A stretch of DNA of 64,000 nt from Candidatus Doudnabacteria bacterium (GTDB lineage: Bacteria; Patescibacteriota; Doudnabacteria; UBA920): NCBI GenBank assembly GCA_031291995.1, contig JARLHZ010000034.1, positions 14,915 to 78,914 of the forward strand. Direction: 5' to 3'. Every line of letters begins with the position of its first letter. Position 1 is the stretch's first letter. The translations under genes were made by a program, and so were the position numbers. Positions 3,860 through 60,975 of this stretch are shown here, one piece after another. The notes beneath the pieces were generated by a model, which was not told the DNA's origin, made no database searches, and saw nothing but the letters and a program-made list of their open reading frames with translations.

Positions 3860-5140
3860 ATGAACAAACTAGCGTTAATTTGGAAAACCAAGGACCTGCG
3901 CAATAAAATTTTAATTGTAACGGGTCTGTTGTTAATTACCCGCGTACTGGCTCATATCCCGATTTCCGGCATAGATATTACCGGACTCAAAAGCTACCTC
4001 CAGCAGAGCCAGTTTTTTAATTTGTTGGATATATTTTCCGGCGGCGGCTTGACCAATTTCTCCATCGCCATGCTTGGTGTTGGTCCGTACATTACCGCCA
4101 CCATCATTATGCAGTTGTTAACCATTGTCATACCGTCCTGGGCGGAGTTGCAAAAAGAAGGCGGCGAGGCCGGCCGGCAACAGTTAAACCAATACACCCG
4201 CTGGATGACTATTGTTCTGGCTCCTCTCCAGGGTTTCGGCACCATTCGTTTGCTGCAGAGCCAGGGCGGCGCGGCGGTATTGGGAAGTTTTAGCCCGTTT
4301 GTATGGTTTACGGTTTTGTTGTCCATTACTACCGGCACGATGCTGCTTATGTGGCTGGGTGAAATTATGTCGGAATTTGACGTTGGCAACGGAGTCTCGT
4401 TGATTATTTTTGCCGGCATTGTCGCCCGCTTGCCCGCCAACCTTGGTTTTTTGCAGGGCTGGTACGATCCATCCAAGTTGCCGACAGTCTTGGCTTTTGC
4501 GGCCATGATTTTAATTGTCATTGCCGGAGTGGTTTTGGTAACTGAAGCGCAAAGGAATATTCCCATTGCCTATGCCAAGCGCGTCCGCGGCAACCAGCTG
4601 TTTGGGGGAGTGGATACTCATTTGCCGCTTCGCTTGAACCAGGCTGGAGTTATTCCGATTATTTTTGCGATTTCCGTCATGCTTTTCCCGGCCATGTTGG
4701 CCCAGTTTTTCGTCAATGCCAAATCGGGCCTATTGGCCGGGTTGGCGACAAAAACCATTGCTCTGTTCCAAAGCCAGGGGTTGTTTTATGGCGTGACTTA
4801 TTTTATTTTGGTTATGGCGTTTACGTATTTTTATACGGCTGTGGTGTTTAATCCCGAGGAAATTGCCGAAAATGTGCAAAAAAACGGCGGCTTTGTCCCA
4901 GGCCTAAGGCCTGGCGCTCAGACTGCGGATTTTTTGAGCATGGTGCTCAACCGTATTACCCTGGCCGGCGCCTTCTTTTTGGCCGTCATCGCTATTTTGC
5001 CTCTTATCTTGCAAAACTATACCGGCACTACTTCGTTAACCTTTGGCGGTACTTCTTTATTGATTGTGGTCTCCGTGGTCATCGAAGTAATCAAAAAAAT
5101 CGAAGCTCAGCTGACAATGCACGACTATGAGGGCTTTTAG
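3860..5140 (+). CDS. secY: preprotein translocase subunit SecY
   Basis: 426 aa, about 10 TM segments. Conserved position after L15. Confidence 0.93.
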   Translation: MNKLALIWKTKDLRNKILIVTGLLLITRVLAHIPISGIDITGLKSYLQQSQFFNLLDIFSGGGLTNFSIAMLGVGPYITATIIMQLLTIVIPSWAELQKEGGEAGRQQLNQYTRWMTIVLAPLQGFGTIRLLQSQGGAAVLGSFSPFVWFTVLLSITTGTMLLMWLGEIMSEFDVGNGVSLIIFAGIVARLPANLGFLQGWYDPSKLPTVLAFAAMILIVIAGVVLVTEAQRNIPIAYAKRVRGNQLFGGVDTHLPLRLNQAGVIPIIFAISVMLFPAMLAQFFVNAKSGLLAGLATKTIALFQSQGLFYGVTYFILVMAFTYFYTAVVFNPEEIAENVQKNGGFVPGLRPGAQTADFLSMVLNRITLAGAFFLAVIAILPLILQNYTGTTSLTFGGTSLLIVVSVVIEVIKKIEAQLTMHDYEGF

Positions 5141-5185
5141 ATACCGCGGATCTGCGCGCGGATAGCGACGCGGATCGGTCGCGGA

Positions 5186-5262
5186 AGCTATTATCCGTGT
5201 CATTGCGAGTGCGTCCGAAGCAATCCATATTCTGATAAGATTGCTTCGTCGTCAGCCAAAGC
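5186..5262. repeat. MITE-like solo TIR pair of the GIY-YIG-element hairpin family
   Basis: GTCATTGCGAGTGCGTCCGAAGCAATC…AAGATTGCTTCGTCGTCAGCC forms a long imperfect hairpin with no ORF between the arms. Lies downstream of secY. Confidence 0.6.
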
Positions 5263-5342
5263 CCCGAATCCCAGCAATGACAGCAATAATTTACCAATTC
5301 CCAAAAACCTGCCATAATATTGGCAGGTTTTAAAATGACTTT

Positions 5343-5891
5343 ATGGTATTATCGGATAAATCGATAAACGAATATCTGGCCAGTGGAAAAATAATAATTG
5401 AACCCGCGGTCACGCCAAACGATGTTCGTCCTGTTGGAATCAGATTACATTTGGGAGAAGGTTTGCTTCTGCCAAAATCCGGTCAGACTGTGGATTTATC
5501 GAAAGAACAGCCGGTCGATTATGATTCCATTACGATGGGTACCGACGGGTTTGTTTTAAAGCCCAGTGGATTTATTTTAGGAACAACTTTGGAGTTAATT
5601 AAGGTACCGAGAAATATTGTCTGTTTTTTGGACGGGCGTTCCACCCTGGCAAGGTTAGGTCTGATGATTCATGTTACGGCCATGGTCGCTGACGGTAATT
5701 TTGAAGAGCCCGGTTCAATTGTTTTGGAAATAAAGAATCTTTCCCCGATGAATTTAATTTTAAAACCTAACTTGCCCATAGGCATGCTGTTGTTTAATCA
5801 GATTGATCAAGAAATTGCCCAAGACGTCCAATTCCAGTATAAAGGGCAAAAAGGGGTTTTACCGCCGGACTTAAAAAATCAATTCAAGTAA
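5343..5891 (+). CDS. dcd: dCTP deaminase / dUTPase-fold protein
   Basis: 182 aa. Dcd-like N-terminus (LSDKSINEYLASGKIIIEP) and beta-rich core. Confidence 0.75.
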   Translation: MVLSDKSINEYLASGKIIIEPAVTPNDVRPVGIRLHLGEGLLLPKSGQTVDLSKEQPVDYDSITMGTDGFVLKPSGFILGTTLELIKVPRNIVCFLDGRSTLARLGLMIHVTAMVADGNFEEPGSIVLEIKNLSPMNLILKPNLPIGMLLFNQIDQEIAQDVQFQYKGQKGVLPPDLKNQFK

Positions 5892-6257
5892 ATGCAAAAC
5901 GAAGAATTCGAAAATTTGATCAACGCCGCCATAGTGGCTTTGCCGAAAAATATTTTGGCTAAACTGGATAATGTGGAAATAACCATGGAAGAAGGGGATA
6001 GCCCCGACAATTCCCTGTTTGGTTTGTATCACGGCGTGTCACAGTTAAAACGCGGTTCGACTTACGGTTACGGCTCGGTTTTACCCGACAAAATTACTAT
6101 TTATAAAGGCACTATTGAAAAATTCGCCACCGATCCCGCCGATATCCCTTTTATGGTTCGCCGCGTCGTCTGGCACGAAATCGGCCACCATTTTGGTTTT
6201 GACGAAGAAGGCGTAAGGCGCTTGGAAGAAAAGTGGCGAAGAGAGGGTAAAGTGTAA
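5892..6257 (+). CDS. small zincin-like metallopeptidase-domain protein (HExxH)
   Basis: 121 aa with a WHEIGHHFG HExxH motif near the C-terminus. Resembles minimal MMP-like Zn-protease domain proteins (COG3824-like). Start ATG abuts the dcd stop. Confidence 0.5.
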   Translation: MQNEEFENLINAAIVALPKNILAKLDNVEITMEEGDSPDNSLFGLYHGVSQLKRGSTYGYGSVLPDKITIYKGTIEKFATDPADIPFMVRRVVWHEIGHHFGFDEEGVRRLEEKWRREGKV

Positions 6258-6270
6258 ATCTTTAAGTTGA

Positions 6271-6293
6271 TTTTTTGCTCGGCCGAGCAAAAA
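6271..6293 (+). terminator. intrinsic terminator TTTTTTGCTCGGCCGAGCAAAAA after the HExxH gene
   Basis: Perfect palindrome GCTCGGCCGAGC flanked by T and A runs. Confidence 0.6.
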
Positions 6294-6400
6294 CTCAACA
6301 AGCATTTTTTAGCAAAACATGACAAAGCGGTTATTATTGACAAAATTGGGGAAAAAATGTAAAATATAAAGTTAAATGTGTGTTATAATTTAATGGAAAT

Positions 6401-6826
6401 ATGCAAGAACAAACGAATCGAAACTTAACACCAGAAGAAAAACAGCAATTAGACGCGCTGCTCGCAAAAGCCGCTGATAATCGGATCAAGCCCGTTGAAT
6501 CGGATCTGTCTAATGCCGAAATTATAAGCCAAAAGGAGAGCGAAATCTCTCCGGATTTTGGGAGAGATACTCAAATTCCGCTTAAAAATCCGCCTGAAGT
6601 TAAACATTTTAATGCTGATGTTACAGGGGCTGCTAAACCGGTTTCCGCTCAGGCACAAGCGGCCAGTGAATCTTCTCAAAATAGGACAAATGGTGAATAC
6701 TATCTGGATACTTTGGCAAATGGTGAATTAATTGATTCCTCCAATAAGGCTACTGACGCTTTAAATGAATTGCTGCAACGCTTGCAAAATCCGGAGTCAG
6801 ACAAGACCACCCCTGATAAAAAGTAA
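6401..6826 (+). CDS. hypothetical acidic low-complexity protein
   Basis: 141 aa ORF preceded by a TTGACA-17-TAAAAT promoter at about 6331-6365. No recognisable domain. Confidence 0.45.
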   Translation: MQEQTNRNLTPEEKQQLDALLAKAADNRIKPVESDLSNAEIISQKESEISPDFGRDTQIPLKNPPEVKHFNADVTGAAKPVSAQAQAASESSQNRTNGEYYLDTLANGELIDSSNKATDALNELLQRLQNPESDKTTPDKK

Positions 6827-6851
6827 AAATTAGTTTGTTTCCAAAACAAAA

Positions 6852-9410
6852 ATGCCCGTTGAGCTAAGCACAATTCAAATTACGGCTCTGGTTTTAATTG
6901 CTTTGGTAGTCATTTTTTTGACTATCGCTTTTTATTATTTTAAAAGGCATCGCTATCACAGCAAACATATAGTTCCCAGAATAAAAGACTGGGTATTTTT
7001 GGAAATACAAATGCCCAAGGAAGGCTCGGAGGACAAGGACCAGCAGAGGCCGAAATCCGAGGAAGAAAAAAAGGCGTTGATTGCCGTGGCGGAGCAGTTG
7101 TTTACTACGCTTTCGGAGTCCGGACACAACAAAGGCTGGCTTTTGGGCAAGGATTATTACAGTTTTGAAATCGCATGCACGGAAAAGAAAATCAGTTTTT
7201 ATATAAATTGCCCGAAGCATTTACAGCAGCTGGTGGAAAAGCAGGTTCAGGCCCAGTATCCCCACGCCTTTGTGGAAGAAGTTAAAGGCTACAACCCGTT
7301 CCAAAAGGGCGGGACGATTGAAGTTATGGAATTGGAGCTGAACAAACAATATGTCTACCCGTACCGAACGTATAAAACCATGGAGTCGGACCCGCTGAAT
7401 TCTCTGACTAATGCCATGAGCAAGCTGCAGGAAAACGAAGGCGCGGCCATCCAGATAATTTTATCTCCGGCCGGGACTTTCTGGCAGAGCCGGCCCAGGC
7501 ACATGGCTTTGGAAATCCAGCAGGGTAAGAATCCCGAAATGGTGGAAAGAGGTCATGTCTATAAGTTATTGATAGGTTTCGCGCGATCGGTAGGACGCTC
7601 CATGGCGGGGATAGGCAACGGGAATCAAAATTACCAGGGCTCGCACGCGCATAAAGACTTGTCCGGTTATGCCTCGCCAATCCAGCTGACGCCAATGCAA
7701 AATGAAATTGTTAAAAAGCTGGAAGAAAAAGCCAGCCGCCCCGGTTACAAAACCAACATACGTTTAATTACGTCGTCCACCACGCCCGGGAGCGCGGAAA
7801 TCCACATGCGGAATCTGACCGCCGCGTTTTTACAGTATAATATGCCGCCGTTTAACGGCTTGCATCCTAAAAATCGTGACAAGAACGACGTGCTTAAGGA
7901 TTATATATTCCGCGTCTTCCGCGACAACGGCGCGCACGGCATTTTAAACACGGAAGAGCTGTCTTCCATATGGCATTTGCCCACGCCTTACATTGAAACC
8001 CCCAACATCAAATGGCTGGTATCCAAAAAAGCGCCGCCGCCGGTGAATTTGCCCAAAGAAGGTCTACTGCTTGGCCGCAGTATTTATCGCGGCCAGGAGA
8101 CCAAAGTGTTTATGGAGCGCGATGACCGCCGCCGGCATATGTATATTATCGGCCGCACCGGTTCGGGAAAAACCGAAATTATGAAATATATGTCCGTGCA
8201 GGACATTAAAAACGGCGAAGGTTTGTGCGTCATTGACCCGCACGGTGATTTTATAGAGGATATTTTGCCCCACATCCCCAAAGAGCGGGCCGAGGATGTT
8301 ATTTTATTTGAGCCGTTCGATATGGATCGGCCTATGGGATTGAATATGCTCCAGGTGGACAGCGAAGAACAAAAAGATTTTGCGGTGCAGGAAATGATCC
8401 AGATTTTTTACAAATTGGTTACCGACCCGGCCATGCTCGGACCGATGTTCGAGCACAATATGCGCAATGCTATGCTGACTCTTATGGCGGACGAAGAACA
8501 TCCCGGGACCATCACCGACATCCCGCGGATTTTTACCGACATGGAGTTCCAAAAATATAAAGTGTCCAAGCTCAAAGATCCGGTGGTTCGGCTGTTTTGG
8601 GAAAAAGAAATGGCCAAAACGTCCGACTTCCACAAATCCGAAATGCTTGGCTATTTAATTTCCAAAGTCGGCCGGTTCGTGGAAAACGCCATGATGCGAA
8701 ATATTGTCGGCCAGCCCAAATCGGCGTTTAACTTCCGTGAGGTTATGGACAAGAAAAAAATTCTGCTGATAAATTTGGCCAAAGGCAAAGTCGGTGAAAT
8801 TAACGCTAAACTTTTGGGGCTTATTATTGTCAGCAAAATCCAGATGGCAGCGCTGTCCCGCGCCGACACCAAAGAAGACAACCGTCCCGACTTTTATCTC
8901 TATGTGGATGAGTTCCAAAATTTTATTACCGACGCGTTTTCTTCCATATTATCGGAGGCCAGAAAATACCATCTTAACTTAATTGTCGCCCACCAGTATC
9001 TCGGACAGCTCGAACAGCAGGCCGGGGCGCAGGGAGCGGGCAGTAAGGATTTGCGCGACGCCGTATTCGGCAATGCCGGCACCATGGTTTGTTTCCGCAT
9101 TGGCGCCGAGGATAGCGAAATTATGGCCAAGGAGTTTAAACCGACATTTAACGAATTTGATTTGGTTAATGTGGACCGTTATAACGCATTTTTGAAGCTG
9201 ATGATAAACGGCACCGCCAGCAAGCCGTTTAATGTGGCCACTTACCCATTGCTCAGAAATGGAAATGAAGAGCAGGCTAAGGCTATACGACAGTTGTCAC
9301 GCTTAAAGCACGGGCGTGCCCGGGCCGAAGTGGAAGAAGAAATTTTGGAAGCCGGCCAAGTGGCGGAAAATATGGCGGCGGCTTTGCCGGACATTGAACG
9401 GGGGTTGTAG
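6852..9410 (+). CDS. membrane-anchored P-loop ATPase, VirB4/TrbE/TraC-like (T4SS/conjugation-type ATPase)
   Basis: 852 aa. N-terminal TM helix. Walker A IIGRTGSGKTE at about residue 433 and Walker B YLYVDEFQNF. The domain order (about 400 aa N-domain, then NTPase) matches the VirB4/CagE/TrbE family rather than coupling proteins. Confidence 0.6.
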   Translation: MPVELSTIQITALVLIALVVIFLTIAFYYFKRHRYHSKHIVPRIKDWVFLEIQMPKEGSEDKDQQRPKSEEEKKALIAVAEQLFTTLSESGHNKGWLLGKDYYSFEIACTEKKISFYINCPKHLQQLVEKQVQAQYPHAFVEEVKGYNPFQKGGTIEVMELELNKQYVYPYRTYKTMESDPLNSLTNAMSKLQENEGAAIQIILSPAGTFWQSRPRHMALEIQQGKNPEMVERGHVYKLLIGFARSVGRSMAGIGNGNQNYQGSHAHKDLSGYASPIQLTPMQNEIVKKLEEKASRPGYKTNIRLITSSTTPGSAEIHMRNLTAAFLQYNMPPFNGLHPKNRDKNDVLKDYIFRVFRDNGAHGILNTEELSSIWHLPTPYIETPNIKWLVSKKAPPPVNLPKEGLLLGRSIYRGQETKVFMERDDRRRHMYIIGRTGSGKTEIMKYMSVQDIKNGEGLCVIDPHGDFIEDILPHIPKERAEDVILFEPFDMDRPMGLNMLQVDSEEQKDFAVQEMIQIFYKLVTDPAMLGPMFEHNMRNAMLTLMADEEHPGTITDIPRIFTDMEFQKYKVSKLKDPVVRLFWEKEMAKTSDFHKSEMLGYLISKVGRFVENAMMRNIVGQPKSAFNFREVMDKKKILLINLAKGKVGEINAKLLGLIIVSKIQMAALSRADTKEDNRPDFYLYVDEFQNFITDAFSSILSEARKYHLNLIVAHQYLGQLEQQAGAQGAGSKDLRDAVFGNAGTMVCFRIGAEDSEIMAKEFKPTFNEFDLVNVDRYNAFLKLMINGTASKPFNVATYPLLRNGNEEQAKAIRQLSRLKHGRARAEVEEEILEAGQVAENMAAALPDIERGL

Positions 9411-9454
9411 GATCATATAGTAAATAACATATAGGCGCGAATGCGCTCGGCCGG

Positions 9455-9650
9455 GATGACAATAATTCAGTAACAGTTCACAAGCCTGAGTGAGGCCGAA
9501 AATCCTGCTGATTTTCCCAGCTGCGGGGCTCTTCGTTCATTCGCCTTTGGCGAATATCACAACGCCTCCCAATCCTCGCTGCGGAAAATCGCTAGCATTT
9601 CCGTCCTCCCGGGTTTGTCCAACTCGAGTTTGTGAACTGTTACAAAAATT
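9455..9650 (+). ncRNA. candidate structured RNA / structured 3' region closed by a 14 bp long-range stem
   Basis: GTAACAGTTCACAA (9459-9472) pairs with TTGTGAACTGTTAC (9635-9648). Several internal hairpins (GAAAATC/GATTTTC, ATTCGCC/GGCGAAT). The size and closing stem are compatible with a 6S-like fold, but not diagnostic. Confidence 0.2.
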
Positions 9651-9656
9651 CAGACT

Positions 9657-9684
9657 TGATTTATGTTTACTAAAATGGTATAAT
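9657..9684 (+). promoter_or_regulatory. sigma70-like promoter (TTGATT-16-TATAAT) for the downstream small ORFs
   Basis: TTGATT at 9657-9662 and an extended -10 TGGTATAAT ending at 9684, about 27 nt before ATG 9711. Confidence 0.5.
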
Positions 9685-9710
9685 ATCTCTATTATTAATT
9701 TATTAATTTT

Positions 9711-9962
9711 ATGGCGGAAGGCCATCACGATACAGGGCATCACGAAACTATTTCCCACGGAAGCACCAACAATGGGTTTTTTTTGAATATGTTTGAAACT
9801 TTGACTACCGGGGTTGCGGGTATAGTAAGTGAAGGTATGACCAATAATGCTTTAAATTTTACCACATCATTAAAAGATGTGGTGGCTCCCGATAACATTA
9901 AGTCTTCCAAGCGAAAAGGCGGAGGAGGCGGCGGAGGACATGCGGCGCCTGCCCATCATTAA
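9711..9962 (+). CDS. hypothetical small protein with His-rich N-terminus and poly-Gly C-terminus
   Basis: 83 aa ORF directly behind a consensus-like promoter. Confidence 0.4.
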   Translation: MAEGHHDTGHHETISHGSTNNGFFLNMFETLTTGVAGIVSEGMTNNALNFTTSLKDVVAPDNIKSSKRKGGGGGGGHAAPAHH

Positions 9963-10400
9963 ATGGAACATACAGCCACAAATTTAAACGAGCTTATCGC
10001 GCTATTTTTATCCGAGGCAATCCGAACCAGGCGCACTTCTATTTCCCGAGCCGCGGAAATTTCCCAGCGCGTCGTCTCGCGTCTGCCGTTTTTACGATCC
10101 GAATCGGGAGCTCTTATGATGCTTACGGAAATAGAAAAAGATTTCCAGGAGGTCAGCGTTTTAAAACAGGCCCTTCATTTTGGTTATGGGGCTTCGGACA
10201 TTAAGGTCTACGAAAGGGAAATTAAGGATTACGCCGGCAAGCTGTTTATTAGGGATATTCCGTCTTCAAACCAGTTTTTGCAGGATGCGGCCTTACCGCA
10301 GATGACTATTCAGCAGTTATGCCTAAAATATCCTGATTTTTGTATTTACCTGCAACATAACAGCGATAAAGCCCAAATGTTGGCGCAATTGGCCGTATAA
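9963..10400 (+). CDS. hypothetical protein
   Basis: 145 aa ORF. Its ATG directly follows the stop of the preceding ORF. Confidence 0.4.
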   Translation: MEHTATNLNELIALFLSEAIRTRRTSISRAAEISQRVVSRLPFLRSESGALMMLTEIEKDFQEVSVLKQALHFGYGASDIKVYEREIKDYAGKLFIRDIPSSNQFLQDAALPQMTIQQLCLKYPDFCIYLQHNSDKAQMLAQLAV

Positions 10401-10586: not shown

Positions 10587-11228
10587 ATGGAAAAAGACAA
10601 AGACAAAATTGACAACAAAATTTCCAATTTGGTGCTGATTGCCCAAATGATAGACGCGGCTGAAAAAAATATCACCTCGGCCAAACAGATGTTAAGGGAA
10701 ATGATGGGCGGACCGGCTACCAAAGCGAATTTGGCGGCGTTTTCGGAAAAAGCCCAAACACTCACCGTTTCGGAAGGCGGCAAAGTTATTGAGGGCGTAT
10801 TTGACGGGCAGAACATGGTGGGTCCGGACAAAAAGCAGTATCCGGTGCCGGCCAACTATGCCTCCAAATCCAAACTGGTAGAGGGCGACGTATTAAAGCT
10901 GACTATTGCCGATGACGGTTCGTTTATATACAAGCAGATCGGACCGGTTGATCGCAAGAAAATGCTTGGCATGCTGATGGTGGATGAAAAGGGCGACTTC
11001 AGAGTTATGGCTGAAGGCAAGCCTTACAAAGTCTTGCTGGCTTCCTTAACTTATTTTAAAGCCGAGGCCGGAGACGAAGTGACCATTGTCGTACCCCAGG
11101 AAGGCGCGACCGAGTGGGCGGCAGTCGAAAATGTTATAAAAAAAGGCTCTCATTCTTTAAATACCGATATAGAAATGGGGGAGAATAGCGGCAGTAAGGT
11201 AATTGTGGACGAAGACGAGGAGCTATAG
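10587..11228 (+). CDS. hypothetical protein with internal duplicated beta-rich segments and acidic C-terminus
   Basis: 213 aa ORF. An extended -10 TGGTATAAT lies at about 10461-10469 upstream. Confidence 0.5.
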   Translation: MEKDKDKIDNKISNLVLIAQMIDAAEKNITSAKQMLREMMGGPATKANLAAFSEKAQTLTVSEGGKVIEGVFDGQNMVGPDKKQYPVPANYASKSKLVEGDVLKLTIADDGSFIYKQIGPVDRKKMLGMLMVDEKGDFRVMAEGKPYKVLLASLTYFKAEAGDEVTIVVPQEGATEWAAVENVIKKGSHSLNTDIEMGENSGSKVIVDEDEEL

Positions 11229-11304: not shown

Positions 11305-11985
11305 TTGACATTTGAAATTTATATAATGGACAACGTAGGTACAACTATGCCGAACCGAGAAAACGCTATTACCAGACTCCTGGAGCGTTTTCCGATAATT
11401 TACCAATTTCTGCGCTTTGCGGCGATTGGTTTTTTAAATGTCGCAATAAATTTTTTAATTTTAAACGGCATTTCAAAGGCTTTGGGGATATCGGAAGGTC
11501 TGCCACTTGGGGCTGTTGAGGCGGTGGCCTTTGTTTTTGCCCTGATTCAAAGCTACCTATGGAATAGAATGTGGACGTTTGGCGGCGAACAGGGCATATC
11601 GCTGTGGAAAAATTTTTTGCGGCTGGTGCTGGTGGGATCCGTTGGCGCGTTTTCGATTATTTTAGTCCTCGTCGGCTCCAAGTTTTTCGCTCCGCCGTAC
11701 TATTATTTTGGCATATTGCTGGTATTTTTAATCTGCCAGATAGTCCTGTGGCGGACTTTTGGCTTCCATACCTCAACCGCCGGACACACGGGCAATTCAT
11801 TTATCGCGTTTTTTATTGTAACGCTGGTGGGTTTTGGTATTAATGTCGGCTTGGTATCCCTAATTTCCCTGCACCTGCACATTACCCACACCGACCTGGA
11901 CAAAAACCTCGCCGCCGTCGCGGCCACCGCCGTATCATTGTTCTGGAATTTTTTTGGTTATAAGGTCGTGGTGTTTAAGAAATAG
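11305..11985 (+). CDS. GtrA-like family integral membrane protein
   Basis: 226 aa, multi-TM. RFAAIGFLNVAINFLILNG resembles the GtrA family motif. Possibly two GtrA-like repeats. Confidence 0.55.
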   Translation: MTFEIYIMDNVGTTMPNRENAITRLLERFPIIYQFLRFAAIGFLNVAINFLILNGISKALGISEGLPLGAVEAVAFVFALIQSYLWNRMWTFGGEQGISLWKNFLRLVLVGSVGAFSIILVLVGSKFFAPPYYYFGILLVFLICQIVLWRTFGFHTSTAGHTGNSFIAFFIVTLVGFGINVGLVSLISLHLHITHTDLDKNLAAVAATAVSLFWNFFGYKVVVFKK

Positions 11986-12660: not shown

Positions 12661-13487
12661 ATGGATAGTATCATTTTGCGTGGGCCGCATAAAGACTTTG
12701 AGGCAATAAAAAAACTTGACGAAAACGGCATGGAATTTTGGCTTGCCCGTGAATTAATGCCCTTGCTGGGTTACGAAAAGTGGCAGAATTTTGAAGAGGT
12801 GGTCGGTAAGGCGGCGCGGGCTTGCATTCAGAGTGGTCAGGTTGTGGATAACCATTTTACCGGAATCAGTAAAATGATAAAAATAGCCAAAAATGCGGTT
12901 AGGCCGGCTAAGGATTACAAGCTTGATCGCTATGCTTGTTACTTAATTGCGCAAAATGGAGATACAAGCAAAGAACCAATTGCCTTGGCGCAGACTTATT
13001 TTGCCTTACAAACCAGAAGGCAGGAGATTTTTGAAAATTTGCCGGAAGACGAAAAACGTTTATTTGTCCGAGGGCAGGTTAAATCTCAAAATAAAAAACT
13101 CATGGGTACCGCCAAAGCCGCCGGCGTAACGAAGTTTGGCGTTTTTAACGACGCTGGTTACCTCGGGCTTTATGGAATGCATTTGGCGGATGTGGAAAAG
13201 CGGAAAGTCATAAAAAAAGCGAACTGCTCGACAGGGCAGGAACAACCGAATTGGCCGCAAATCTTTTTAGGATAACTCAGACGCACGAAAAATTAGATAA
13301 TGACAAAATTCAGGGAGACTATCAAGCCAGCAGGGTTCATAATATGGTGGGTGGAAAAGTCAGGCAAACAATTAAAGATATTGGCGGAGTTCTTCCGGAA
13401 GACTTGCCTGCCGAAAGGCATATTTGCCAAATTCAAAGAGAAGTAAAAAGCTTAAAATCAGGCAATAAAAAATTGAAAGTGAAATAA
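12661..13487 (+). pseudogene. dinD: DNA-damage-inducible protein D (DinD)-like gene split by a frameshift at an A7 homopolymer
   Basis: ORF 12661-13275 matches the DinD N-terminal two-thirds (EFWLARELMPLLGY…RYACYLIAQNGD…QTYFALQTRRQE). Overlapping ORF 13251-13487 matches the DinD C-terminus (ELAANLFRITQT…GGKVRQTIKDIGG). The frames switch at aaaaaaa 13212-13218. Confidence 0.7.
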
Positions 13488-13490
13488 TTT

Positions 13491-15170
13491 ATGGCAGTTT
13501 TATATAGGAAATACCGGCCGCAGACATTTGCGGAGGTGGTAAACCAAAAACATATAATTCAGACTTTAAAAAACCAGGTGGCGGCCGGGCAGGTTGCGCA
13601 TGCCTATTTGTTTACCGGGAGCCGCGGGGTGGGGAAGACGTCGGTGGCGAGGATTTTGGCTAAGGCGGTGAATTGTTTGGGGGCAAGCGGATCAGCTGGT
13701 CCGCTAATCGGTAAATCAGCCAGGCAGCCGGGGGACGCATGCGGTGAGTGCGATGTATGCAAACAAATTGAAGCCGGGAATTTTTTGGATTTGGTAGAAA
13801 TAGACGCGGCGTCAAATACCGGAGTTGAGAATGTGCGGGATTTAATCGAACACGTAAAATTCGCCCCATCAATAGGCAAATACAAAGTCTTTATTATCGA
13901 CGAAGTTCACATGCTCAGCAAGCAGGCGTTTAACGCCCTGCTCAAGACTTTGGAAGAGCCGCCGAGCCATACCATTTTTATTTTAGCCACTACGGAAATC
14001 AACAAAGTTTTGCCGACCATAATTTCCCGCACCCAGAGGTTTGATTTTAAGACGCTATCTCCGGCGGATATTTTAGGTCAGTTGCAATATATTGCCAAAC
14101 AGGAAAATTTGAATTTTAACCCGGAAATTTTGGAGCTGGTGGCCAATAATGCCGAAGGAAGCGCGCGCGACGCTTTGTCGCTGCTCGACAAGCTTTTGAC
14201 CCTGGGCGACGAACTGACACTGGAAGACAGCCAGCAGCTATTGGGAATTACCGACATTGCGGTTTGCGAAAAACTGTCGGAATATATAGTGGAAGGCAAG
14301 CTTGCGGAATTGCCGGCATTTTTTGAAGGGCTAATGGAGGGCGGCGCGGACTTCGCTATTTTAAATCGCGACTATTTGGAATATTTGCGAAAAGTTTTGG
14401 TATATAAAATTACCGATGACGCGGAAGGATTTGGATTGGCGGATACCCATCGGGACGCGCTTAAAAGCCTCGCTGCCAAACTGACCATACAGGATATAAT
14501 GTTTGTTATCCGGCTGTTTTTGCGTTCCTACAAGGAATTGGACAGCTCACCAAGTCAGGAATTGCCATTGCTGCTGGCGAGCCTCGAAGCCGCGCAGAAG
14601 AAGGATGCAGGGCTAAGGGCTAAGGGTACAGTGGATAGTGAGGCTAAATCGTCAAAGGTGTCTTTAAAATCTTTCGCGGGACATATTCATAATAGCGGGG
14701 AGCCGGTCGGGTCCGTTACGGCGATAACATCACAAGCGTCTTTAAACGAACCAAAATCCGCGCCTCAAGTGGAGTCGGTCGTTGTGGAGCCGGTCGCGCC
14801 GCTCGAAGTATTATCCCATGATGAAAACCTGTCCGGCGATACCGTCGAACTTCCGGAAGCGCGGATTTTTTGGCCCAAAGTCATCAGCGAGGTCAAAAAA
14901 ATCAACAGTCCTTTGGCCAACCTGTTAAAAAGCTGTGAACTTTTGGAAACCAAAGGAAATAAAATTATTGTCGGCGTCAAATACTTGTTCAACCAGCAGC
15001 ATTTGAGCAACGCCAAAAATATCGATACTATAATGAAGGTCTTAAAACTGGTCAGCGGGAAAAACTTGTCATTATCGACCGAAGTTCAAAAGCAACCACA
15101 GCCGGAAACGGCTACTGTCGGGGCGCTTTCCGATGCCCTAAAAGTTTTCGGGGGTGAACTAATAGAATAA
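13491..15170 (+). CDS. dnaX: DNA polymerase III subunit gamma/tau
   Basis: 559 aa. YRPQTFAEVVNQKHI, Walker A GSRGVGKTS, a Zn-finger C-x-C…CxxC, and DEVHML. Confidence 0.9.
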   Translation: MAVLYRKYRPQTFAEVVNQKHIIQTLKNQVAAGQVAHAYLFTGSRGVGKTSVARILAKAVNCLGASGSAGPLIGKSARQPGDACGECDVCKQIEAGNFLDLVEIDAASNTGVENVRDLIEHVKFAPSIGKYKVFIIDEVHMLSKQAFNALLKTLEEPPSHTIFILATTEINKVLPTIISRTQRFDFKTLSPADILGQLQYIAKQENLNFNPEILELVANNAEGSARDALSLLDKLLTLGDELTLEDSQQLLGITDIAVCEKLSEYIVEGKLAELPAFFEGLMEGGADFAILNRDYLEYLRKVLVYKITDDAEGFGLADTHRDALKSLAAKLTIQDIMFVIRLFLRSYKELDSSPSQELPLLLASLEAAQKKDAGLRAKGTVDSEAKSSKVSLKSFAGHIHNSGEPVGSVTAITSQASLNEPKSAPQVESVVVEPVAPLEVLSHDENLSGDTVELPEARIFWPKVISEVKKINSPLANLLKSCELLETKGNKIIVGVKYLFNQQHLSNAKNIDTIMKVLKLVSGKNLSLSTEVQKQPQPETATVGALSDALKVFGGELIE

Positions 15171-18220: not shown

Positions 18221-18700
18221 TACAGTATCTCCTCCTTGCTGAGGAGGAGTACCCGCCGCAGGCGGGGGAAGTGGTGAATAAATGGATTATCAGATAATAA
18301 AAAATAGACCAGACACAGTAAATTTTAGAAAGCAGTTGAGAAATAATTCATCACCGGCAGAAATTATATTATGGCTTGAGCTCAAAGGGCGAAAGTTAAA
18401 TGGTAGAAAATTTCGGAGGCAGTATGGGGTAGAACAGTTTACGGTTGATTTTTACTGTCCTGAATGTAAATTGGCTGTGGAACTAGATGGCGAGACCCAT
18501 AACAATCCTCAAAGCTTTAATTATGACGCCAAAAGAACAGAGGTTATATTGGGGCACGGAATAAAGACTATAAGATTTACTAATAAGGAAATCAGAGAAA
18601 ATTTAGCGGGAGTTTTGGAAGAAATTAAAAAATACTTGGATTGACACCACCCCGTCGCCCTGCGGGCGACACCCCTCCTCAGCAAGGAGGGGATGCTCCG
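18221..18700. mobile_element. about 480 bp element: DUF559 endonuclease-like gene flanked by about 45 bp terminal inverted hairpin repeats
   Basis: Left end 18221-18268 and reverse-complemented right end 18650-18700 align (CTCCTCCTTGCTGAGGAGG…CCGCCGCAGGCGG versus CCCTCCTTGCTGAGGAGG…CGCCCGCAGGGCG). Inserted between htrA and ruvX. Confidence 0.55.
18282..18644 (+). CDS. DUF559 (Vsr/endonuclease-like fold) domain protein
   Basis: 120 aa. DUF559-like pattern (…AEIILWLELKGRKLNGRKFRRQ…VDFYCPECKLAVELDGETH…). Confidence 0.7.
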   Translation: MDYQIIKNRPDTVNFRKQLRNNSSPAEIILWLELKGRKLNGRKFRRQYGVEQFTVDFYCPECKLAVELDGETHNNPQSFNYDAKRTEVILGHGIKTIRFTNKEIRENLAGVLEEIKKYLD

Positions 18701-19494: not shown

Positions 19495-20511
19495 TTGTCC
19501 GAATTTCGCCAAAATCCAATTACAAAAAACTGGGTCCTTATTGCTCCCGCCAGGGGGAAGCGGCCGGATCAGTATAAAACTTACAGTGTTATGTTGGGCG
19601 TGCCGGAAACCGATCCGGCGTGCGTTTTTTGCGCGGGCAACGAACATTTAAACCGGGAAGTTTTACGTTTGGATTCAAGCGGCGAGCGGACCACGGGGAA
19701 GGATTGGGAAATACGGATTATTCCAAATAAATTCGCGGCACTGGAACAGACGGCGGTTTACCGCCACAAAGAATTTTATATTTCCCACAGCGGGGACGGC
19801 GAACATGAGGTCATAATTACGCGAAACCACAATGAGCCGGTCGCTTTGCAGTCCATTGCGGTAGTGGAACTGTCTATTCGCACATTCATCGAGCGGATAA
19901 AAACCTTTGCCAAAAACCCGGAGCTGGCTTATGTGCAGATTTTCCATAACCATGGACGCGACGCCGGAGCCAGCATTATCCATCCGCATTATCAATTACT
20001 GGCCACTCCTATTGTTCCGCCCCATGTCCACAGTGAAATTTTAGGGTGTTACCATTATTACCAGACCCACAAAAGTTGCGTATATTGTGATATTATAAAG
20101 GAAGAGCTGGAAGTAAAACACCGCGTGGTTCACGACAGCGAGCATTTTGTGGTAATTTCCGCTTACGCCAGCCGCAGCCCGTTTGAAACCTGGATTTTGC
20201 CAAAAAAGCACGGCGCGCGGTTTGAGGATATGGGTGAAGAGGAAATTAAACACCTGTCCTTCGTTTTAAAAGTGACGCTCGGCCAGCTGTATACTAAACT
20301 TTCCGACCCGCCGCTGAATTTTTATATCCACACCATGCCTCTTCGCCAGCAGGGCGGCATGCACAGCACCTACGAAGAAAAAGATTTCCACTGGCACCTG
20401 ACCATCTTCCCCCGCATCACCATTTGGGCCGGCTTCGAATTCGCCACGGGGATTCCGGTAAACCCGATAGCGCCGGAGGTGAGTACGAAGTTTCTTAAGG
20501 GAGAGGGTTGA
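19495..20511 (+). CDS. galT: galactose-1-phosphate uridylyltransferase-like (HIT superfamily, GalT family)
   Basis: 338 aa. HIT-like HPHYQL motif and GalT-like two-half architecture with Cys/His metal ligands. Confidence 0.7.
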   Translation: MSEFRQNPITKNWVLIAPARGKRPDQYKTYSVMLGVPETDPACVFCAGNEHLNREVLRLDSSGERTTGKDWEIRIIPNKFAALEQTAVYRHKEFYISHSGDGEHEVIITRNHNEPVALQSIAVVELSIRTFIERIKTFAKNPELAYVQIFHNHGRDAGASIIHPHYQLLATPIVPPHVHSEILGCYHYYQTHKSCVYCDIIKEELEVKHRVVHDSEHFVVISAYASRSPFETWILPKKHGARFEDMGEEEIKHLSFVLKVTLGQLYTKLSDPPLNFYIHTMPLRQQGGMHSTYEEKDFHWHLTIFPRITIWAGFEFATGIPVNPIAPEVSTKFLKGEG

Positions 20512-20552
20512 TAAAAGAGGGTGAAGGGTTGATAACACAATGCAAAGATATT

Positions 20553-20912
20553 ATGCCAGCGAACTCTTATAAAAATCTGACAGCGTGGATTAAGGCTATT
20601 GAATTGGTACAGGAAATTTATGTCATTACTGATAAATTTCCAAAAATGGAATTGTATATTTTGGTCAACCAAATGTTAAGGGCGGCAATCTCAGTACCTT
20701 CAAATATAGCCGAGGGTTATAGAAGAAATCACAGATTAGAGTATATACAATTTTTATCAATAGCAATTGCATCCGCGGCTGAATTGGAAACACAGCTAAT
20801 AATTGCTAAAAATAGATACCCGCTCGTAGATTATCAAAAAGCGGAAATTTTATTGGACGAAATTCAAAGATTGTTGTACGTCACAATTAGATCTTTGAAA
20901 GGAGGTAAATAA
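20553..20912 (+). CDS. four-helix-bundle protein (TIGR02436-like, 'rRNA intervening-sequence protein' family)
   Basis: Conserved IAEGYRRNHRLEYIQFLSIAIASAAELETQL. The ORF track starts at 20508; internal Met 20553 gives the typical 120 aa size. Confidence 0.65.
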   Translation: MPANSYKNLTAWIKAIELVQEIYVITDKFPKMELYILVNQMLRAAISVPSNIAEGYRRNHRLEYIQFLSIAIASAAELETQLIIAKNRYPLVDYQKAEILLDEIQRLLYVTIRSLKGGK

Positions 20913-51978: not shown

Positions 51979-53514
51979 TCACATTGGGGTGTCGCCAAGT
52001 GGTAAGGCAGCGCCCTTTGGAGGCGCCATTCGCAGGTTCGAATCCTGCCACCCCAGCCAATCACTTAAAACGAGATTTTTCGGACTTTCCGCGAGCAGAG
52101 AAAATGGAGACTTGAATTGATATTGTTGAACAATCTGATTTTTAAGTTTCAGGTTCCAAAGTAATTTTTTTAGCAGTTCAAACTTTTCAACATCAGTAGA
52201 TTCTAAATACTCAAAAGACGCTATTGAGGCCTGTAAAAAGGTCTTTTTTGTTAGTTCCAAAGTGAATAAGGCCTCTTCAAGCGTTTGGGTCTTGGTGTTC
52301 AAAACTTGGGTCTGAATTAATTTTGTTTCGGCCTCTAGGTTTAAAATTTGGGGCTTTAGGGCATTTGCCATACTTGGGTCAGTAGAAATTACCTGCACAA
52401 GATTTGCTAGTCGCTCTTGTGTAGTTTTAAGCTTTTTAGCCAGTTCGTCTTTTTGAAAATTGATGTTGCCGGCTTGGGCGATAGTTTTTTCCTTTGCGGC
52501 ACGATAAGCAATTTCAATATCGTGTTCGTCAAACTTAAGTTCCTGAAAAGTTTTGGCTATGAGTTCATCAATGGCTTTATCCCTTAAATATTTTTTATGT
52601 TCCAAACAATTTCCCTTGCCATTGGTGCAATAATAATAAGCGTGGCCTTTTTTTGTTGAGGCGGTAAGCAGACAGCCACAGGAATGGCAAAACATAAAAC
52701 CACGGGCAGGAAAAAAATGTTTTTGTTTTTTGGAACGGGATTTACCGGATAACACATCCTGCACAGTATCAAATAAAATTTTGCTGATAATCGGCTGATG
52801 TATGCCTTGGTAAATTTGGCCGTTGCGGCGGATAACTCCGTAGTAAAATGGATTTTGTAAAATGTGATGAAATTGGGCTTTGCTGGGTTTAAGCCCGCCT
52901 TTTGTTCTAAAGCCGTTTTGGTAAGTGATATTATTTACATCCTTAAGCGAATAGCCGCCGGTAGCATAAAGTTCAAATGCTTGTTTAATGAATACAGATT
53001 TTATTGGGTCTATTTCTTTTTTCTTGGTCGCCAAATTATCCAAATAACCAATCGGTGCGGCTCCGGGCAACTCGCCTTTTTCTAGTTTAGTTTTGTTGCC
53101 GCGCTTAACATCCTGCGACAAGTTTCTGACAAACTGGTTAGCAGTGCCAAATTCCAAGGCTAAGTGCATAACATTGTCGCTGGGGTGGTGACTACCAAAA
53201 GGAGTTATGATTTCGGAAATTATGTTCTCTTGCAGGAGGCTGATAATTTCCCCGCTGTCCCGTAAGTTCCTTGCTATTCGGTCAAGTTTCCACGCCAAAA
53301 GCTTACAACCCTGATTAGCCTTAATATACAAAACCATTTTATTGAACTCCGGACGGCCAATGGTTTTAGCGGATTTACTTTCCTGAAATATTTTATCAAT
53401 GCTCAAATTTAACTTTGCGGCCAAAGCCTTTATTTCGCCGGCTTGAGATTCCAAAGACAAAGCCTGCCGGTCTTCGGCTTCACTGGATTTTCGTAAATAA
53501 ATAATTGTTTTCAT
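51979..53514 (-). CDS. large serine recombinase (resolvase catalytic domain, recombinase domain, Zn-ribbon)
   Basis: 511 aa. N-terminal IIYLRKSSEAEDRQ…SLESQ catalytic-Ser region. Zn ribbon CHSCGC…CTNGKGNC. Coiled-coil. Its 3' end reads through the 3' half of tRNA-Gln. Confidence 0.85.
   Translation of the reverse strand: MKTIIYLRKSSEAEDRQALSLESQAGEIKALAAKLNLSIDKIFQESKSAKTIGRPEFNKMVLYIKANQGCKLLAWKLDRIARNLRDSGEIISLLQENIISEIITPFGSHHPSDNVMHLALEFGTANQFVRNLSQDVKRGNKTKLEKGELPGAAPIGYLDNLATKKKEIDPIKSVFIKQAFELYATGGYSLKDVNNITYQNGFRTKGGLKPSKAQFHHILQNPFYYGVIRRNGQIYQGIHQPIISKILFDTVQDVLSGKSRSKKQKHFFPARGFMFCHSCGCLLTASTKKGHAYYYCTNGKGNCLEHKKYLRDKAIDELIAKTFQELKFDEHDIEIAYRAAKEKTIAQAGNINFQKDELAKKLKTTQERLANLVQVISTDPSMANALKPQILNLEAETKLIQTQVLNTKTQTLEEALFTLELTKKTFLQASIASFEYLESTDVEKFELLKKLLWNLKLKNQIVQQYQFKSPFSLLAESPKNLVLSDWLGWQDSNLRMAPPKGAALPLGDTPM
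51985..52059 (+). tRNA. tRNA-Gln (anticodon UUG)
   Basis: 75 nt cloverleaf. Acceptor TGGGGTG/CACCCCA with a U1:A72 pair. D-loop AAGTGGTAA. Anticodon loop CTTTGGA. T-loop TTCGAAT. Encoded CCA. Near-identical in outline to E. coli tRNA-Gln. Confidence 0.85.
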
Positions 53515-53631
53515 TTTTTTTTGTTTCTTAAGGATTTTTACAAATCCATAATACGCCGGAAGTAAATAATTTTCAAATATTTGCCATAAAGCGCGATTTG
53601 CTGTCTAACCATTTTCGGATTAAGTGTTATA

Positions 53632-53835
53632 TTAATCGAGTGTAACAGGCGGCGGCGTTGCCGCCGCGCCTCCGTTGGGGTGCGGCCGCCTCGCCGCCTG
53701 CCTCTTGGCCATTAGCAAAAACAAATCAGCCAATGCTTCGGTAGCTGAATTAGCCTCATCGTCTGACATTAATTTGTGGTGCTTATCGTTAAAATGCTGT
53801 TGCGTGTAGCTGATAAGCCCCTCGCTGAACCGCAT
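53632..53835 (-). CDS. hypothetical small protein
   Basis: 67 aa ORF adjacent to the recombinase. Its C-terminal part is encoded by a GC-rich GGCGGCGGC palindrome. Weak. Confidence 0.25.
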   Translation of the reverse strand: MRFSEGLISYTQQHFNDKHHKLMSDDEANSATEALADLFLLMAKRQAARRPHPNGGAAATPPPVTLD

Positions 53836-54089
53836 ACAAACCCCGGCGGAGAAAATATAACTTGAATCGTATGAACATAAAATAAAAACAAAAAGCTACT
53901 CCCGCTTATTGCGTAGTAGCCATTGGGCGCTAGTCCCTCTTGGGCTAGCCCACTCCCTGATTAGCTTTTACACTAACCATTTTAAGTTTAACGCTTAAAC
54001 AATTTATGTCAAGCGGATTATCCACCGCTATTTATTTTTAAGACAAAACTTGCTATAGTTTAAGTATAATTTTAACTTAAATCATTATT

Positions 54090-54611
54090 ATGAAAAAAAT
54101 ACTCTTTGCTTTGCCGTTTATATTATTATTAGCGTCAGGGTGTAGTTCTGAAAATAATCAAACCTCTCAAAGTTTACCAACAGCCAGTAATTCTAGTCCG
54201 CAATTTACTACCACGACCGTTGCGGATATGGTGCAGGGAGGGATGGAACATACCCCCACTTTGGTCGAGACTCAAACTAAAATTCTTAAAAAAATTACTT
54301 TTTTAAATAAAAAAGCCACGCCACCCACACAAGAATATTTATTTGAAATTGGAGATAGTAAGGCAGTTGCCGTGTTTGATGTTTCAAAATTTTCACAATT
54401 ATACTCACAATTCAACGCCGGAAATTCCGTAGTTGTCCGAGGGGCTTTCGGAAGTTTTAGCTGTGACACAGATTCAATGGCCGGGGACGCAGGCATTACG
54501 TATCTTTGCAAGACATTAAACACTACACAAATTTTTATTCCTTGGGTTGTTGCTATTGCTCCAGACCCAACGCTTGGAAATAAAAATCCAGTAGAAAAAA
54601 TCACTCAATAA
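54090..54611 (+). CDS. hypothetical lipoprotein
   Basis: 173 aa. Signal peptide plus lipobox LLLASGC. AT-rich. Confidence 0.55.
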   Translation: MKKILFALPFILLLASGCSSENNQTSQSLPTASNSSPQFTTTTVADMVQGGMEHTPTLVETQTKILKKITFLNKKATPPTQEYLFEIGDSKAVAVFDVSKFSQLYSQFNAGNSVVVRGAFGSFSCDTDSMAGDAGITYLCKTLNTTQIFIPWVVAIAPDPTLGNKNPVEKITQ

Positions 54612-54612
54612 T

Positions 54613-55203
54613 ATGGATAAAAATCTTAAAAATTCTTTGCTATTCGGCGCTGCAACGGGCGGTCTTTTTGCTCTTTTTCGTAACGCTGGAAATAAACAAA
54701 AATTAAGCGACTTACAGCTTAAAGCAGTTAATGACCTTAGAGACGCTTTTGCTCAGTTGGTAGGTTCGCTTAATGGAAACATAGCACTCGCTCCAATATT
54801 AACAAGCGTTAAAGAATTTGAGGTTCAAAAACGGTATCAGCAAATAGTAATTTTTCTAGAAAAAAATATACAGAAAGACGCCGAAAATCTTGGTTTGGTA
54901 AAAAGTTTTAAAAGCAGGCTTCAATATGTTTTAAGCGGCAGATTTACTGAGGAAAAAAATAATGCTAAAGCCCACCAAACCCAAGCATTTTTTGTTCCTT
55001 TTAGAGAATTACCAGCTTTGCTTGAAACCCTGCTTGAAAAGCACACACAGATTTTTCGCTTAATGCAAAAAGGATTTGGTTATATGGAAACAGAAGGGCT
55101 TAAAGATTTTAAGCCAGAGGATAGTACGCTCTTAAAATCATACGTAAGCCAATTTCAGGCGTTAGACAAACAAGCAACAAGTTTACTTTCAGACTTCAAG
55201 TAA
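54613..55203 (+). CDS. hypothetical protein
   Basis: 196 aa. Its start overlaps the preceding stop (ATAATATGG). No domain recognised. Confidence 0.5.
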   Translation: MDKNLKNSLLFGAATGGLFALFRNAGNKQKLSDLQLKAVNDLRDAFAQLVGSLNGNIALAPILTSVKEFEVQKRYQQIVIFLEKNIQKDAENLGLVKSFKSRLQYVLSGRFTEEKNNAKAHQTQAFFVPFRELPALLETLLEKHTQIFRLMQKGFGYMETEGLKDFKPEDSTLLKSYVSQFQALDKQATSLLSDFK

Positions 55204-55227
55204 ACTAAAAAATAAACTGAGATTATT

Positions 55228-55776
55228 ATGCGAGGATATTTTTATTACAACTCTTTTGCGGGAAATCATTTTGATATTTCCACTTGGGTAGCCATAATTG
55301 CGGCGTTTGCTGCTATTGCCGCAGCTGTTGCTGCGTTTTGGCAAGCAAATGGGCTTAAGCTTTCCATAAAAGCTGAGACTTTATTAAAATTTATTGATAG
55401 ATTTGAATCGCAAAATTTTAAGGCAGCAAGAAAAACAGCTACCTTAGCTTGCCACACTATGCTGAAAGATAAAAATCCCGGAATAGATGTTGATGACGTT
55501 CTAGATTTTTTTGAGGACGTTTCTTTTATGGTTGAAAAGCAGGCCTTAGATGAGGAAATGGTTTGGCACGCTTTTTATCATTGGATGAGGTTATATTATC
55601 AAGCCTCCGCAACATACATAAATGAACGCAGGCAAGAAGAGCCGACGGTATGGAAATATTTTATTTGCCTGTATCCAAGATTAAATGCTTTGGAAAGAAG
55701 CAACAGTTTTGGCCAATACAAAGAAATACTGGATGACGCTGAGTTAAAAAAACAGCTAGAGGATGAATTAAACTAA
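55228..55776 (+). CDS. hypothetical single-TM protein
   Basis: 182 aa. One Ala-rich TM helix (VAIIAAFAAIAAAVAAFW), then an alpha-helical domain. Confidence 0.5.
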   Translation: MRGYFYYNSFAGNHFDISTWVAIIAAFAAIAAAVAAFWQANGLKLSIKAETLLKFIDRFESQNFKAARKTATLACHTMLKDKNPGIDVDDVLDFFEDVSFMVEKQALDEEMVWHAFYHWMRLYYQASATYINERRQEEPTVWKYFICLYPRLNALERSNSFGQYKEILDDAELKKQLEDELN

Positions 55777-60948: not shown

Positions 60949-60975
60949 ATAAAACCTTTGCCAAACGGCTCGGGT

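Follow-up and report, generated by a model that had tools for sequence, protein, structure and literature searches.

A conserved, locally orphan ATPase of the type IV coupling protein lineage on a Candidatus Doudnabacteria chromosome

A 64-kb stretch of Candidatus Doudnabacteria DNA (contig JARLHZ010000034.1; herein the window) carries at 6852..9410 a gene for an 852-residue, membrane-anchored ATPase that is a type IV secretion system (T4SS)-family member of the FtsK/HerA superfamily and is locally orphan. Our leading interpretation, to which we assign a probability of about 40%, is that this protein belongs to the VirD4/TrwB/TraD lineage of type IV coupling proteins (T4CPs), has been domesticated, is inherited vertically and couples in trans to a T4SS encoded elsewhere. 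We favor this reading because of the matches to Pfam, NCBIfam and Protein Data Bank (PDB) entries, the linkage of relatives to relaxases, a conservation that is not that of a remnant, and the T4SS that most Patescibacteria encode elsewhere. The gene is already annotated, its N-terminal domain is a Pfam domain of unknown function (DUF8128), and detached T4CPs of Patescibacteria have been published; it does not represent a new kind of system. What we add is a predicted fold for DUF8128 that resembles VirB4, a connection with the nickase-translocase pairs of phages and plasmids, and a conserved block formed by an acidic open reading frame (ORF), the ATPase, an unannotated 213-residue protein (h213) and dnaX.

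The 852-residue translation is 100% identical to an NCBI protein from a Candidatus Doudnabacteria metagenome-assembled genome and has homologs in the thousands; on these grounds of homology the ORF must be a genuine gene, as opposed to a chance reading frame. Residues 1 through 32 form a hydrophobic segment in a Kyte-Doolittle scan, with a helix core at ∼7 through 29, and the basic stretch KRHRYHSKH (residues 31 through 39) follows directly; by the positive-inside rule, the N terminus would lie outside and the C terminus inside, the remainder of the protein being cytoplasmic. A crude hydropathy scan and the AlphaFold (AF2) model agree on a single hydrophobic helix, which a domain of ∼360 residues separates from the motor. 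The whole-protein model (mean predicted local distance difference test [pLDDT] 74) comprises a RecA-like core into which helices are inserted at 505 through 619. A previous reading of the window made without database searches (herein the sequence-only reading) had described the ORF, its one N-terminal transmembrane helix and its motifs (GRTGSGKTE, 434 through 442; DEFQNF, 686 through 691; AHQYLGQL, 713 through 720) just as they are found here. The features of the gene are as follows.

6852..9410, + strand: DUF8128-T4CP ATPase gene (ATG start, 852 residues)
6870..6938, + strand: N-terminal transmembrane helix (residues ∼7 through 29) and basic juxtamembrane stretch (hydropathy, AF2 model)
6990..8063, + strand: DUF8128 (PF26449), N-terminal α/β domain, residues ∼47 through 404 (precomputed Pfam, AF2 model)
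8064..9251, + strand: T4CP-type motor, RecA-like nucleotide-binding domain (Pfam, Foldseek, phmmer)
8151-8174, + strand: Walker A
8364-8711, + strand: all-α insertion in the motor, residues ∼505 through 620 (helices in the AF2 model)
8892-8912, + strand: Walker B
9252..9407, + strand: C-terminal helical tail, residues 801 through 852, conserved within the class

The C-terminal half scores above the Pfam cut-offs of three T4CP models: TrwB_AAD_bind (residues 419 through 730; 39.8 bits, cut-off 20.5), T4SS-DNA_transf (411 through 731; 37.8 bits, cut-off 20.1) and TraG-D_C (682 through 751; 22.9 bits, cut-off 22). The assignment holds across the family. Among 36 diverse members, ∼32 to 50% identical to the window ATPase, TrwB_AAD_bind matches all 36, TraG-D_C 35 and T4SS-DNA_transf 22, and both GRTGSGKT (434 through 441) and the DE of Walker B (686 and 687) are invariant. 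The VirB4-side models behave differently: neither CagE_TrbE_VirB nor TraC_F_IV is one of the 25 families that the 36-member alignment matched most often, AAA_10 gives weak matches in nine members, and for the window ATPase itself the Pfam search at E ≤ 1 returned no match to CagE_TrbE_VirB, TraC_F_IV, AAA_10 or P-loop_TraG. TraD and VirD4 models are the best NCBIfam matches, a phmmer search of the PDB returned DotL and TrwB, and Foldseek superposes the motor on TrwB with a target-normalized template modeling score (TMt) of ∼0.6 and a root-mean-square deviation of ∼6 Å. By these comparisons the C-terminal half is that of a T4CP (VirD4/TrwB/TraD) and not of a VirB4. The best matches in the hidden Markov model searches were not to HerA or FtsK: DUF87 matched partially (3e-8; residues 416 through 511, the Walker A region only), helicase_HerA reached 15 of the 970 bits required, and FtsK_SpoIIIE gave an E value of 0.09. 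An identity as HerA or FtsK/SpoIIIE was rejected on these partial or low-scoring matches, the single transmembrane helix and a context with neither NurA nor elements of the KOPS (FtsK-orienting polar sequence) type.

With TrwB, VirD4, TraD, TraG and DotL the ATPase shares an FtsK/HerA P-loop motor and an all-α domain between Walker A and Walker B, and its DEF and A-H-Q motifs align with the DEL and G-L-Q of TrwB. A membrane anchor is predicted at its N terminus. It differs from T4CPs in the single predicted transmembrane helix of that anchor, where two are usual, in the extra ∼360 residues of DUF8128 between anchor and motor, and in a core-chromosomal location with no relaxase or mating-pair-formation (Mpf) genes nearby; it is also far more conserved than plasmid T4CPs.

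The N-terminal domain had been described in the sequence-only reading as some 400 residues of unassigned sequence. Residues ∼40 through 404 do lack a match in the Pfam copy that we scanned, and the region seemed unassigned because that copy has no PF26449 model; the precomputed assignment for the 100%-identical protein (P0001) and for all listed homologs places Pfam DUF8128 at residues ∼47 through 404. We found no literature on PF26449/DUF8128. Searched alone against 1.84 billion representatives, the domain returned 2,100 clusters at 50% identity and is nearly always N-terminal in proteins of ∼800 to 860 residues. A dedicated AF2 model (pLDDT 86; predicted template modeling score [pTM] 0.82) was compared with the PDB, and TrwK/VirB4 was the sole significant family (13 chains, E = 3.5e-6 to 1.3e-4, query-normalized score [TMq] 0.40 to 0.45; next-best family, 6e-3). 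In structural comparison with phage G gp156 the same domain gave E = 1.7e-21 and TMq = 0.63. By profile, hhalign gives probabilities of 96 to 99% to the N termini of plasmid and phage T4CP-like proteins, whereas a weak test against three VirB4-like single sequences gave <1%, equal to unrelated controls. DUF8128 resembles VirB4 by predicted fold only. Like VirB4/TrwK of R388, the window ATPase would combine an N-terminal α/β domain with a C-terminal motor, and it departs from VirB4/TrwK in giving no sequence-level signal in the Pfam and hhalign comparisons and in its T4CP-type motor. The position of Walker A, on which a preference for VirB4/TraC/TrbE-type ATPases over VirD4 had been built, does reflect a real N-terminal domain with a VirB4-like predicted fold.

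The closest relatives outside the Patescibacteria have both domains and are encoded on monoderm plasmids and in Bacillus phages. A tblastn search of plasmids found two-domain homologs in Streptomycetaceae, Bacillus, Clostridium, Sulfolobus and haloarchaeal plasmids; over the plasmid and phage relatives together, tblastn E values go down to 3e-56. On an Embleya plasmid the homolog lies between a VirB4-like ATPase and a Replic_Relax gene, the latter followed by an NlpC/P60 hydrolase, and a PrgI-family gene is found two genes further upstream of the VirB4-like ATPase. On a B. subtilis plasmid it is directly upstream of a Replic_Relax-family gene, with TcpE and an 854-residue VirB4 (AAA_10, 4e-83) downstream. 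These plasmids provide an internal comparison, as each encodes both kinds of ATPase: in BLASTP the window ATPase matches the T4CP-like genes at 2e-67 and 2e-34 and the co-resident VirB4s at only 4e-6 and 3.7. Every sequence test, this one included, points away from the VirB4/TrbE assignment of the sequence-only reading.

Virulent Bacillus phages, too, encode full-length homologs (SP8 and CampHawk, both SPO1-like; CP-51/JL/Shanette; gp156 of phage G), and the phage family phrog_5156, whose function is unannotated, matches the ATPase at E = 1.4e-92 (residues 82 through 838 to profile positions 55 through 811 of 824). In SP8 (4896-8433 of locus L090) the next gene encodes a protein annotated as “replication initiation by nicking” that is homologous to the Embleya Replic_Relax protein; in phage G (3186-7328 of locus L091) the homolog adjoins gp155, which is annotated as VirB-like and also matches the N-terminal domain weakly. 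Such a phage pair (orf200/201 of 0305phi8-36; gp27.3/27.4 of SPO1), in which a relaxase is joined by a coupling ATPase, was described as a “DNA translocation operon” and found dispensable in the laboratory (Pathria et al. 2012). Because plasmid and phage homologs alike adjoin Replic_Relax or nicking-type genes, gene neighborhood identifies the DUF8128-T4CP family as a T4CP subtype of monoderm mobile elements that is normally paired with a nickase. The window ATPase is homologous to these relaxase-linked translocases over both the N-terminal domain and the motor and has its ancestry among them. On the mobile elements the translocase gene has a nickase or relaxase gene as its partner, and plasmids also supply VirB4, PrgI, TcpE and a cell-wall hydrolase; the Patescibacteria gene, at an identity of only 21 to 27%, has lost that partner and gained a fixed chromosomal neighborhood.

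Neither in the flanks of the ATPase nor among the ∼60 substantial ORFs of the whole window is there a candidate for VirB6, VirB8-10 or a second VirD4-type protein, which upholds the absence of VirB6, VirB8-10 and VirD4 reported earlier for the 5-kb flanks and extends it to 64 kb. Published surveys show this to be the usual arrangement. In Quinonero-Coronel et al. 2025 (PMC12102498), VirB4 was detected in 2,417 of 3,035 Patescibacteria assemblies and 5,713 VirD4-type T4CP homologs in 2,918 of the 3,035 genomes (96%), with only 148 of these homologs near virB4. Their tables give one or two t4cp1 genes per genome, far from the VirB4/TrsD/VirB3/VirB6/VirB2 cluster, and separate t4cp2-type (TcpA-like) matches in many genomes; among the rows listed in the genome table is one Doudnabacteria genome, which is VirB4-positive. 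On these counts the source genome, too, is likely to encode a full T4SS with its own VirB4 outside the window. The VirB4 proteins of Patescibacteria form a distinct clade of their own, and a T4CP gene at a distance from virB4 is accepted in the literature (PMC12102498). The window ATPase resembles the published t4cp1 homologs in being chromosomal, VirD4-type, listed under the same NCBI product name and almost never beside virB4; the DUF8128 domain, the h213/dnaX block and the phage relatives are not described in that study.

Genetic data are available for Southlakia epibionticum, whose T4SS is essential and whose T4SS cluster has no recognizable coupling protein (Wang et al. 2023). The tables of that study list two T4CP-like genes, SEML1_0293 and SEML1_0142. 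SEML1_0293 agrees with the window ATPase in product name and Pfam layout (PF10412 at residues 402 through 719) and is probably its counterpart, judged by name, domain layout and the source names given for the longer members of DUF8128 clusters; like the phage operon, it is dispensable. The more divergent SEML1_0142, a “TraM recognition domain” ATPase, has a small ORF 12 nt upstream, and both genes are essential. This SEML1_0141/0142 pair shares the upstream-ORF geometry seen for the window ATPase and the acidic ORF that precedes it.

The window is core chromosome. It runs from rplE...rplO through secY, dcd, a zincin gene, acidic141, the ATPase, h145, h213, gtrA and, further on, dnaX, h503, htrA and ruvX, followed by genes of glycolysis and the pentose-phosphate pathway, recJ, mreB and the dcw cluster. 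The sequence-only reading had characterized the neighbors as a minimal HExxH protein (HEIGH in the zincin), an acidic low-complexity protein (acidic141) and small hypotheticals, and we see the same. The features around the ATPase are as follows.

5892..6257: zincin, 121-residue Zincin_1 protein with HEIGH (Pfam)
6337..6365, + strand: sigma-70-like promoter match TTGACA-17-TAAAAT (11/12; best of the region, consensus match only)
6401..6826, + strand: acidic141, 141 residues, acidic low-complexity (24 D+E, 16 K+R), ending 25 nt before the ATPase start
9963..10400, + strand: h145, 145-residue hypothetical, in 26 of 80 loci (clade-level conservation only)
10587..11228, + strand: h213, 213 residues, unannotated, the most conserved neighbor; its own AT-rich upstream region contains TGGTATAAT
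11305..11985, + strand: gtrA, membrane protein of the GtrA family, within the conserved block
13491..15170, + strand: dnaX, clamp-loader tau/gamma, downstream end of the conserved block

Compared within the same genomes, the ATPase has a mean identity of 78%, SecY of 79% and DnaX of 52%; over 50 homologs the mean column identity of the ATPase is 82%, and the catalytic residues are invariant. Such conservation, on a par with that of SecY, places the gene under strong purifying selection as judged from these alignments, and a remnant, as had been suggested, or a pseudogene was rejected in view of it and of the intact catalytic motifs. Synteny was assessed in 80 loci from closely related genomes and in seven distant loci from other Patescibacteria lineages, in which the ATPase is ∼50% identical. 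In the close loci secY is kept upstream of the ATPase in 48 of 80, and downstream h213 is kept in 56, gtrA in 52 and dnaX in 49. Six of the seven distant loci retain the order ATPase, h213 homolog, (gtrA), dnaX, with gtrA present in four of seven, and recR, ybaB and dnaB lie near the block in several loci. Identity of the h213 homologs is 66 to 88% in the 56 close loci and 54 to 61% in the six distant ones. The h213 family comprises at least 8,000 homologs, none with a Pfam domain, and profile searches of Pfam, NCBIfam, PADLOC, PHROGs and the PDB gave no significant match for h213. Its nature is hinted at only by a weak match of MazE/AbrB type and by a single JGI (Joint Genome Institute) name.

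Immediately upstream, position is conserved where sequence is not. A small ORF precedes the ATPase in 50 of 55 related loci, ending 10 to 52 nt before the start codon in 41 (the remaining spacings range from a 1-nt overlap to 180 nt), and in all seven distant loci, with a gap of 11 to 37 nt in six and of ∼520 nt in the seventh (L081). Its sequence can be aligned among close relatives only: acidic141 has no tblastn match at 1e-5 in the 80 loci, no similarity to the upstream ORFs of the distant loci, and no family match in Pfam, NCBIfam, PADLOC or PHROG. We regard it as a putative fast-evolving, positionally conserved partner of the ATPase. The promoter match upstream of acidic141 suggests an operon of the acidic ORF and the ATPase; no terminator-like site is found between 6826 and 6852.

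If the ATPase is a coupling protein acting in trans, its ring would assemble at the cytoplasmic face of the membrane, as for TrwB, and spend ATP hydrolysis on handing a polymer substrate to a membrane channel; the ancestry makes DNA a likelier substrate than protein. The channel that we think most likely is the MPF-FATA-derived T4SS found elsewhere in ∼80% of Patescibacteria, in its own cluster without a T4CP. The acidic protein, probably cotranscribed with the ATPase, would act as an adaptor or regulator, and h213 may be a further partner.

Several observations weigh against coupling to a T4SS. Among the ∼60 substantial ORFs of the window there is no T4SS gene or relaxase. The scores of the NCBIfam T4CP equivalogs are all far under their curated cut-offs (SXT_TraD, 60.1 of 366 bits; CD1115 VirD4-like, 49.4 of 250; TraD_Ftype, 19.6 of 521), so the window ATPase belongs to no named NCBIfam equivalog. 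SEML1_0293 is nonessential and the Southlakia T4SS is essential, from which it follows that the essential job of the T4SS needs no SEML1_0293. Three further points also speak for a domesticated translocase of T4CP lineage that works independently of a T4SS, as a membrane-anchored cellular motor for DNA: t4cp1-type genes occur in five of six VirB4-negative draft assemblies checked, the virulent phages with full-length, functioning homologs have no T4SS, and the retention across classes of the acidic ORF, ATPase, h213, (gtrA) and dnaX at ∼50% ATPase identity, with recR, ybaB and dnaB nearby, hints at a different functional circle. Such a motor, with h213 and the acidic ORF as partners, could serve DNA uptake or export together with competence machinery, or the handling of chromosomes or replication forks. 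SecY-level conservation is atypical of conjugation genes; T4CP homologs are scarce near virB4 (148 of 5,713), and the authors of PMC12102498 themselves raise exaptation as something that cannot be excluded; one locus lies beside type IV pilus and nucleotide-salvage genes; and in the window dcd is upstream of the ATPase. Synteny can nevertheless be inherited without a functional link; the probable Southlakia counterpart is nonessential, contrary to what a core role in replication or segregation would predict; h213 has no recognizable DNA-binding or other domain; and any substrate is putative. Nor do the t4cp2-type proteins, if FtsK-like as we assume, leave an FtsK gap to be filled, and their presence in many genomes makes replacement of FtsK by the ATPase less likely. 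On balance we consider a T4SS-independent motor a close rival of coupling in trans, though in itself somewhat unlikely. The more specific proposal that the ATPase, acidic ORF and h213 form a DNA-handling module that an ancestor of the Patescibacteria captured from a phage or plasmid relaxase-translocase operon, and that is now tied to a replication neighborhood (dnaX, recR, dnaB), appears doubtful; if true, the module might supply the motor that nucleotide-auxotrophic epibionts otherwise lack for taking up or exporting DNA.

Two other interpretations fare much worse. A VirB4/TrbE-type assembly ATPase, left as a lone remnant or forming a noncanonical export module with the mini-metalloprotease, was the preference of the sequence-only reading, and it can draw on a layout of two domains in which Walker A lies close to residue 434, on the N-terminal domain model, for which no other PDB family is significant, on the VirB-like gp155 of phage G, and on Foldseek, in which full-length TrwK/VirB4 is the top match of the whole model (E = 7.6e-15 over ∼930 aligned columns). 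The global TM-score of that alignment is only ∼0.34, against 0.6 for the fit of the motor to TrwB, and neither the Pfam, hhalign and BLASTP comparisons described above nor the existence of a separate VirB4 clade in Patescibacteria leaves much room for it. Purifying selection speaks against a remnant, and a protease-ATPase module is at odds with the distribution of the zincin gene, which is kept in 30 of the 80 close relatives and in none of the distant loci. We regard the VirB4 reading as largely refuted at the sequence level and very improbable. Slighter still is the case for an anti-phage defense ATPase of HerA/DUF87 type, which would account for the DUF87 match, for PADLOC mad8 (1.4e-15, residues 426 through 760), for the weak HerA matches and for a Bro-N/PDC-S13-like gene 3 kb downstream. 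These matches are limited to the generic P-loop region, the window scans found no MADS, Sir2-HerA or Dnd partner genes, and the Bro-N gene is present in only three of 80 loci; a core-genome, syntenic, near-universal and vertically conserved gene is the opposite of a defense island.

The question matters because of how Patescibacteria live. They need hosts to supply nucleotides, lipids and amino acids, and they have an essential T4SS whose role the literature calls completely unknown. The T4SS cluster lacks a coupling protein, yet nearly every genome keeps a detached, strongly conserved ATPase of T4CP type. To learn whether the ATPase serves the T4SS or was recruited to another task would tell what Patescibacteria move across the membrane and in which direction. 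The two unannotated putative partners that accompany it would be obvious genetic targets in Southlakia or Nanosynbacter.

Some further observations concern the neighborhood of the block. The 550-nt gap after the ATPase (9411-9962) contains nonconserved ORFs only, including a His/Gly-rich 83-residue ORF (9711-9962), and a promoter-like site that scores 10/12 and carries a TG extension (9656-9684); it has no Rfam match. We take h145, which follows, to be probably outside the core block. The Bro-N protein (12661-13275, + strand; PADLOC PDC-S13 match, 1e-73) is an insertion inside the conserved block. Farther along, at 18282-18644 and 20508-20912 (+ strand), a DUF559 endonuclease-like gene and a gene for a 23S-rRNA-intervening-sequence protein (bAvd-like) are scattered among housekeeping genes (ruvX, galT, tpiA).

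The sole RNA gene in an Rfam scan of the window is one tRNA, far from the ATPase locus. This tRNA-Gln (51985-52059, + strand) abuts a large serine recombinase (51979-53514, − strand), next to which lies a low-GC stretch (0.36 to 0.41) with DUF4760 and unknown ORFs; the region 51979-56000 is probably an integrated mobile element. The block at 58000-63838, with a GC content of 0.54 to 0.58 compared with ∼0.45 for the genome, could have come by horizontal transfer or be a chimera produced in assembly or binning. It carries tandem HisRS-like genes (58002-59327 and 59296-60663, − strand), an aromatic-amino-acid (histidine) ammonia-lyase (60976-62631, − strand) and HisIE (63239-63838, − strand).

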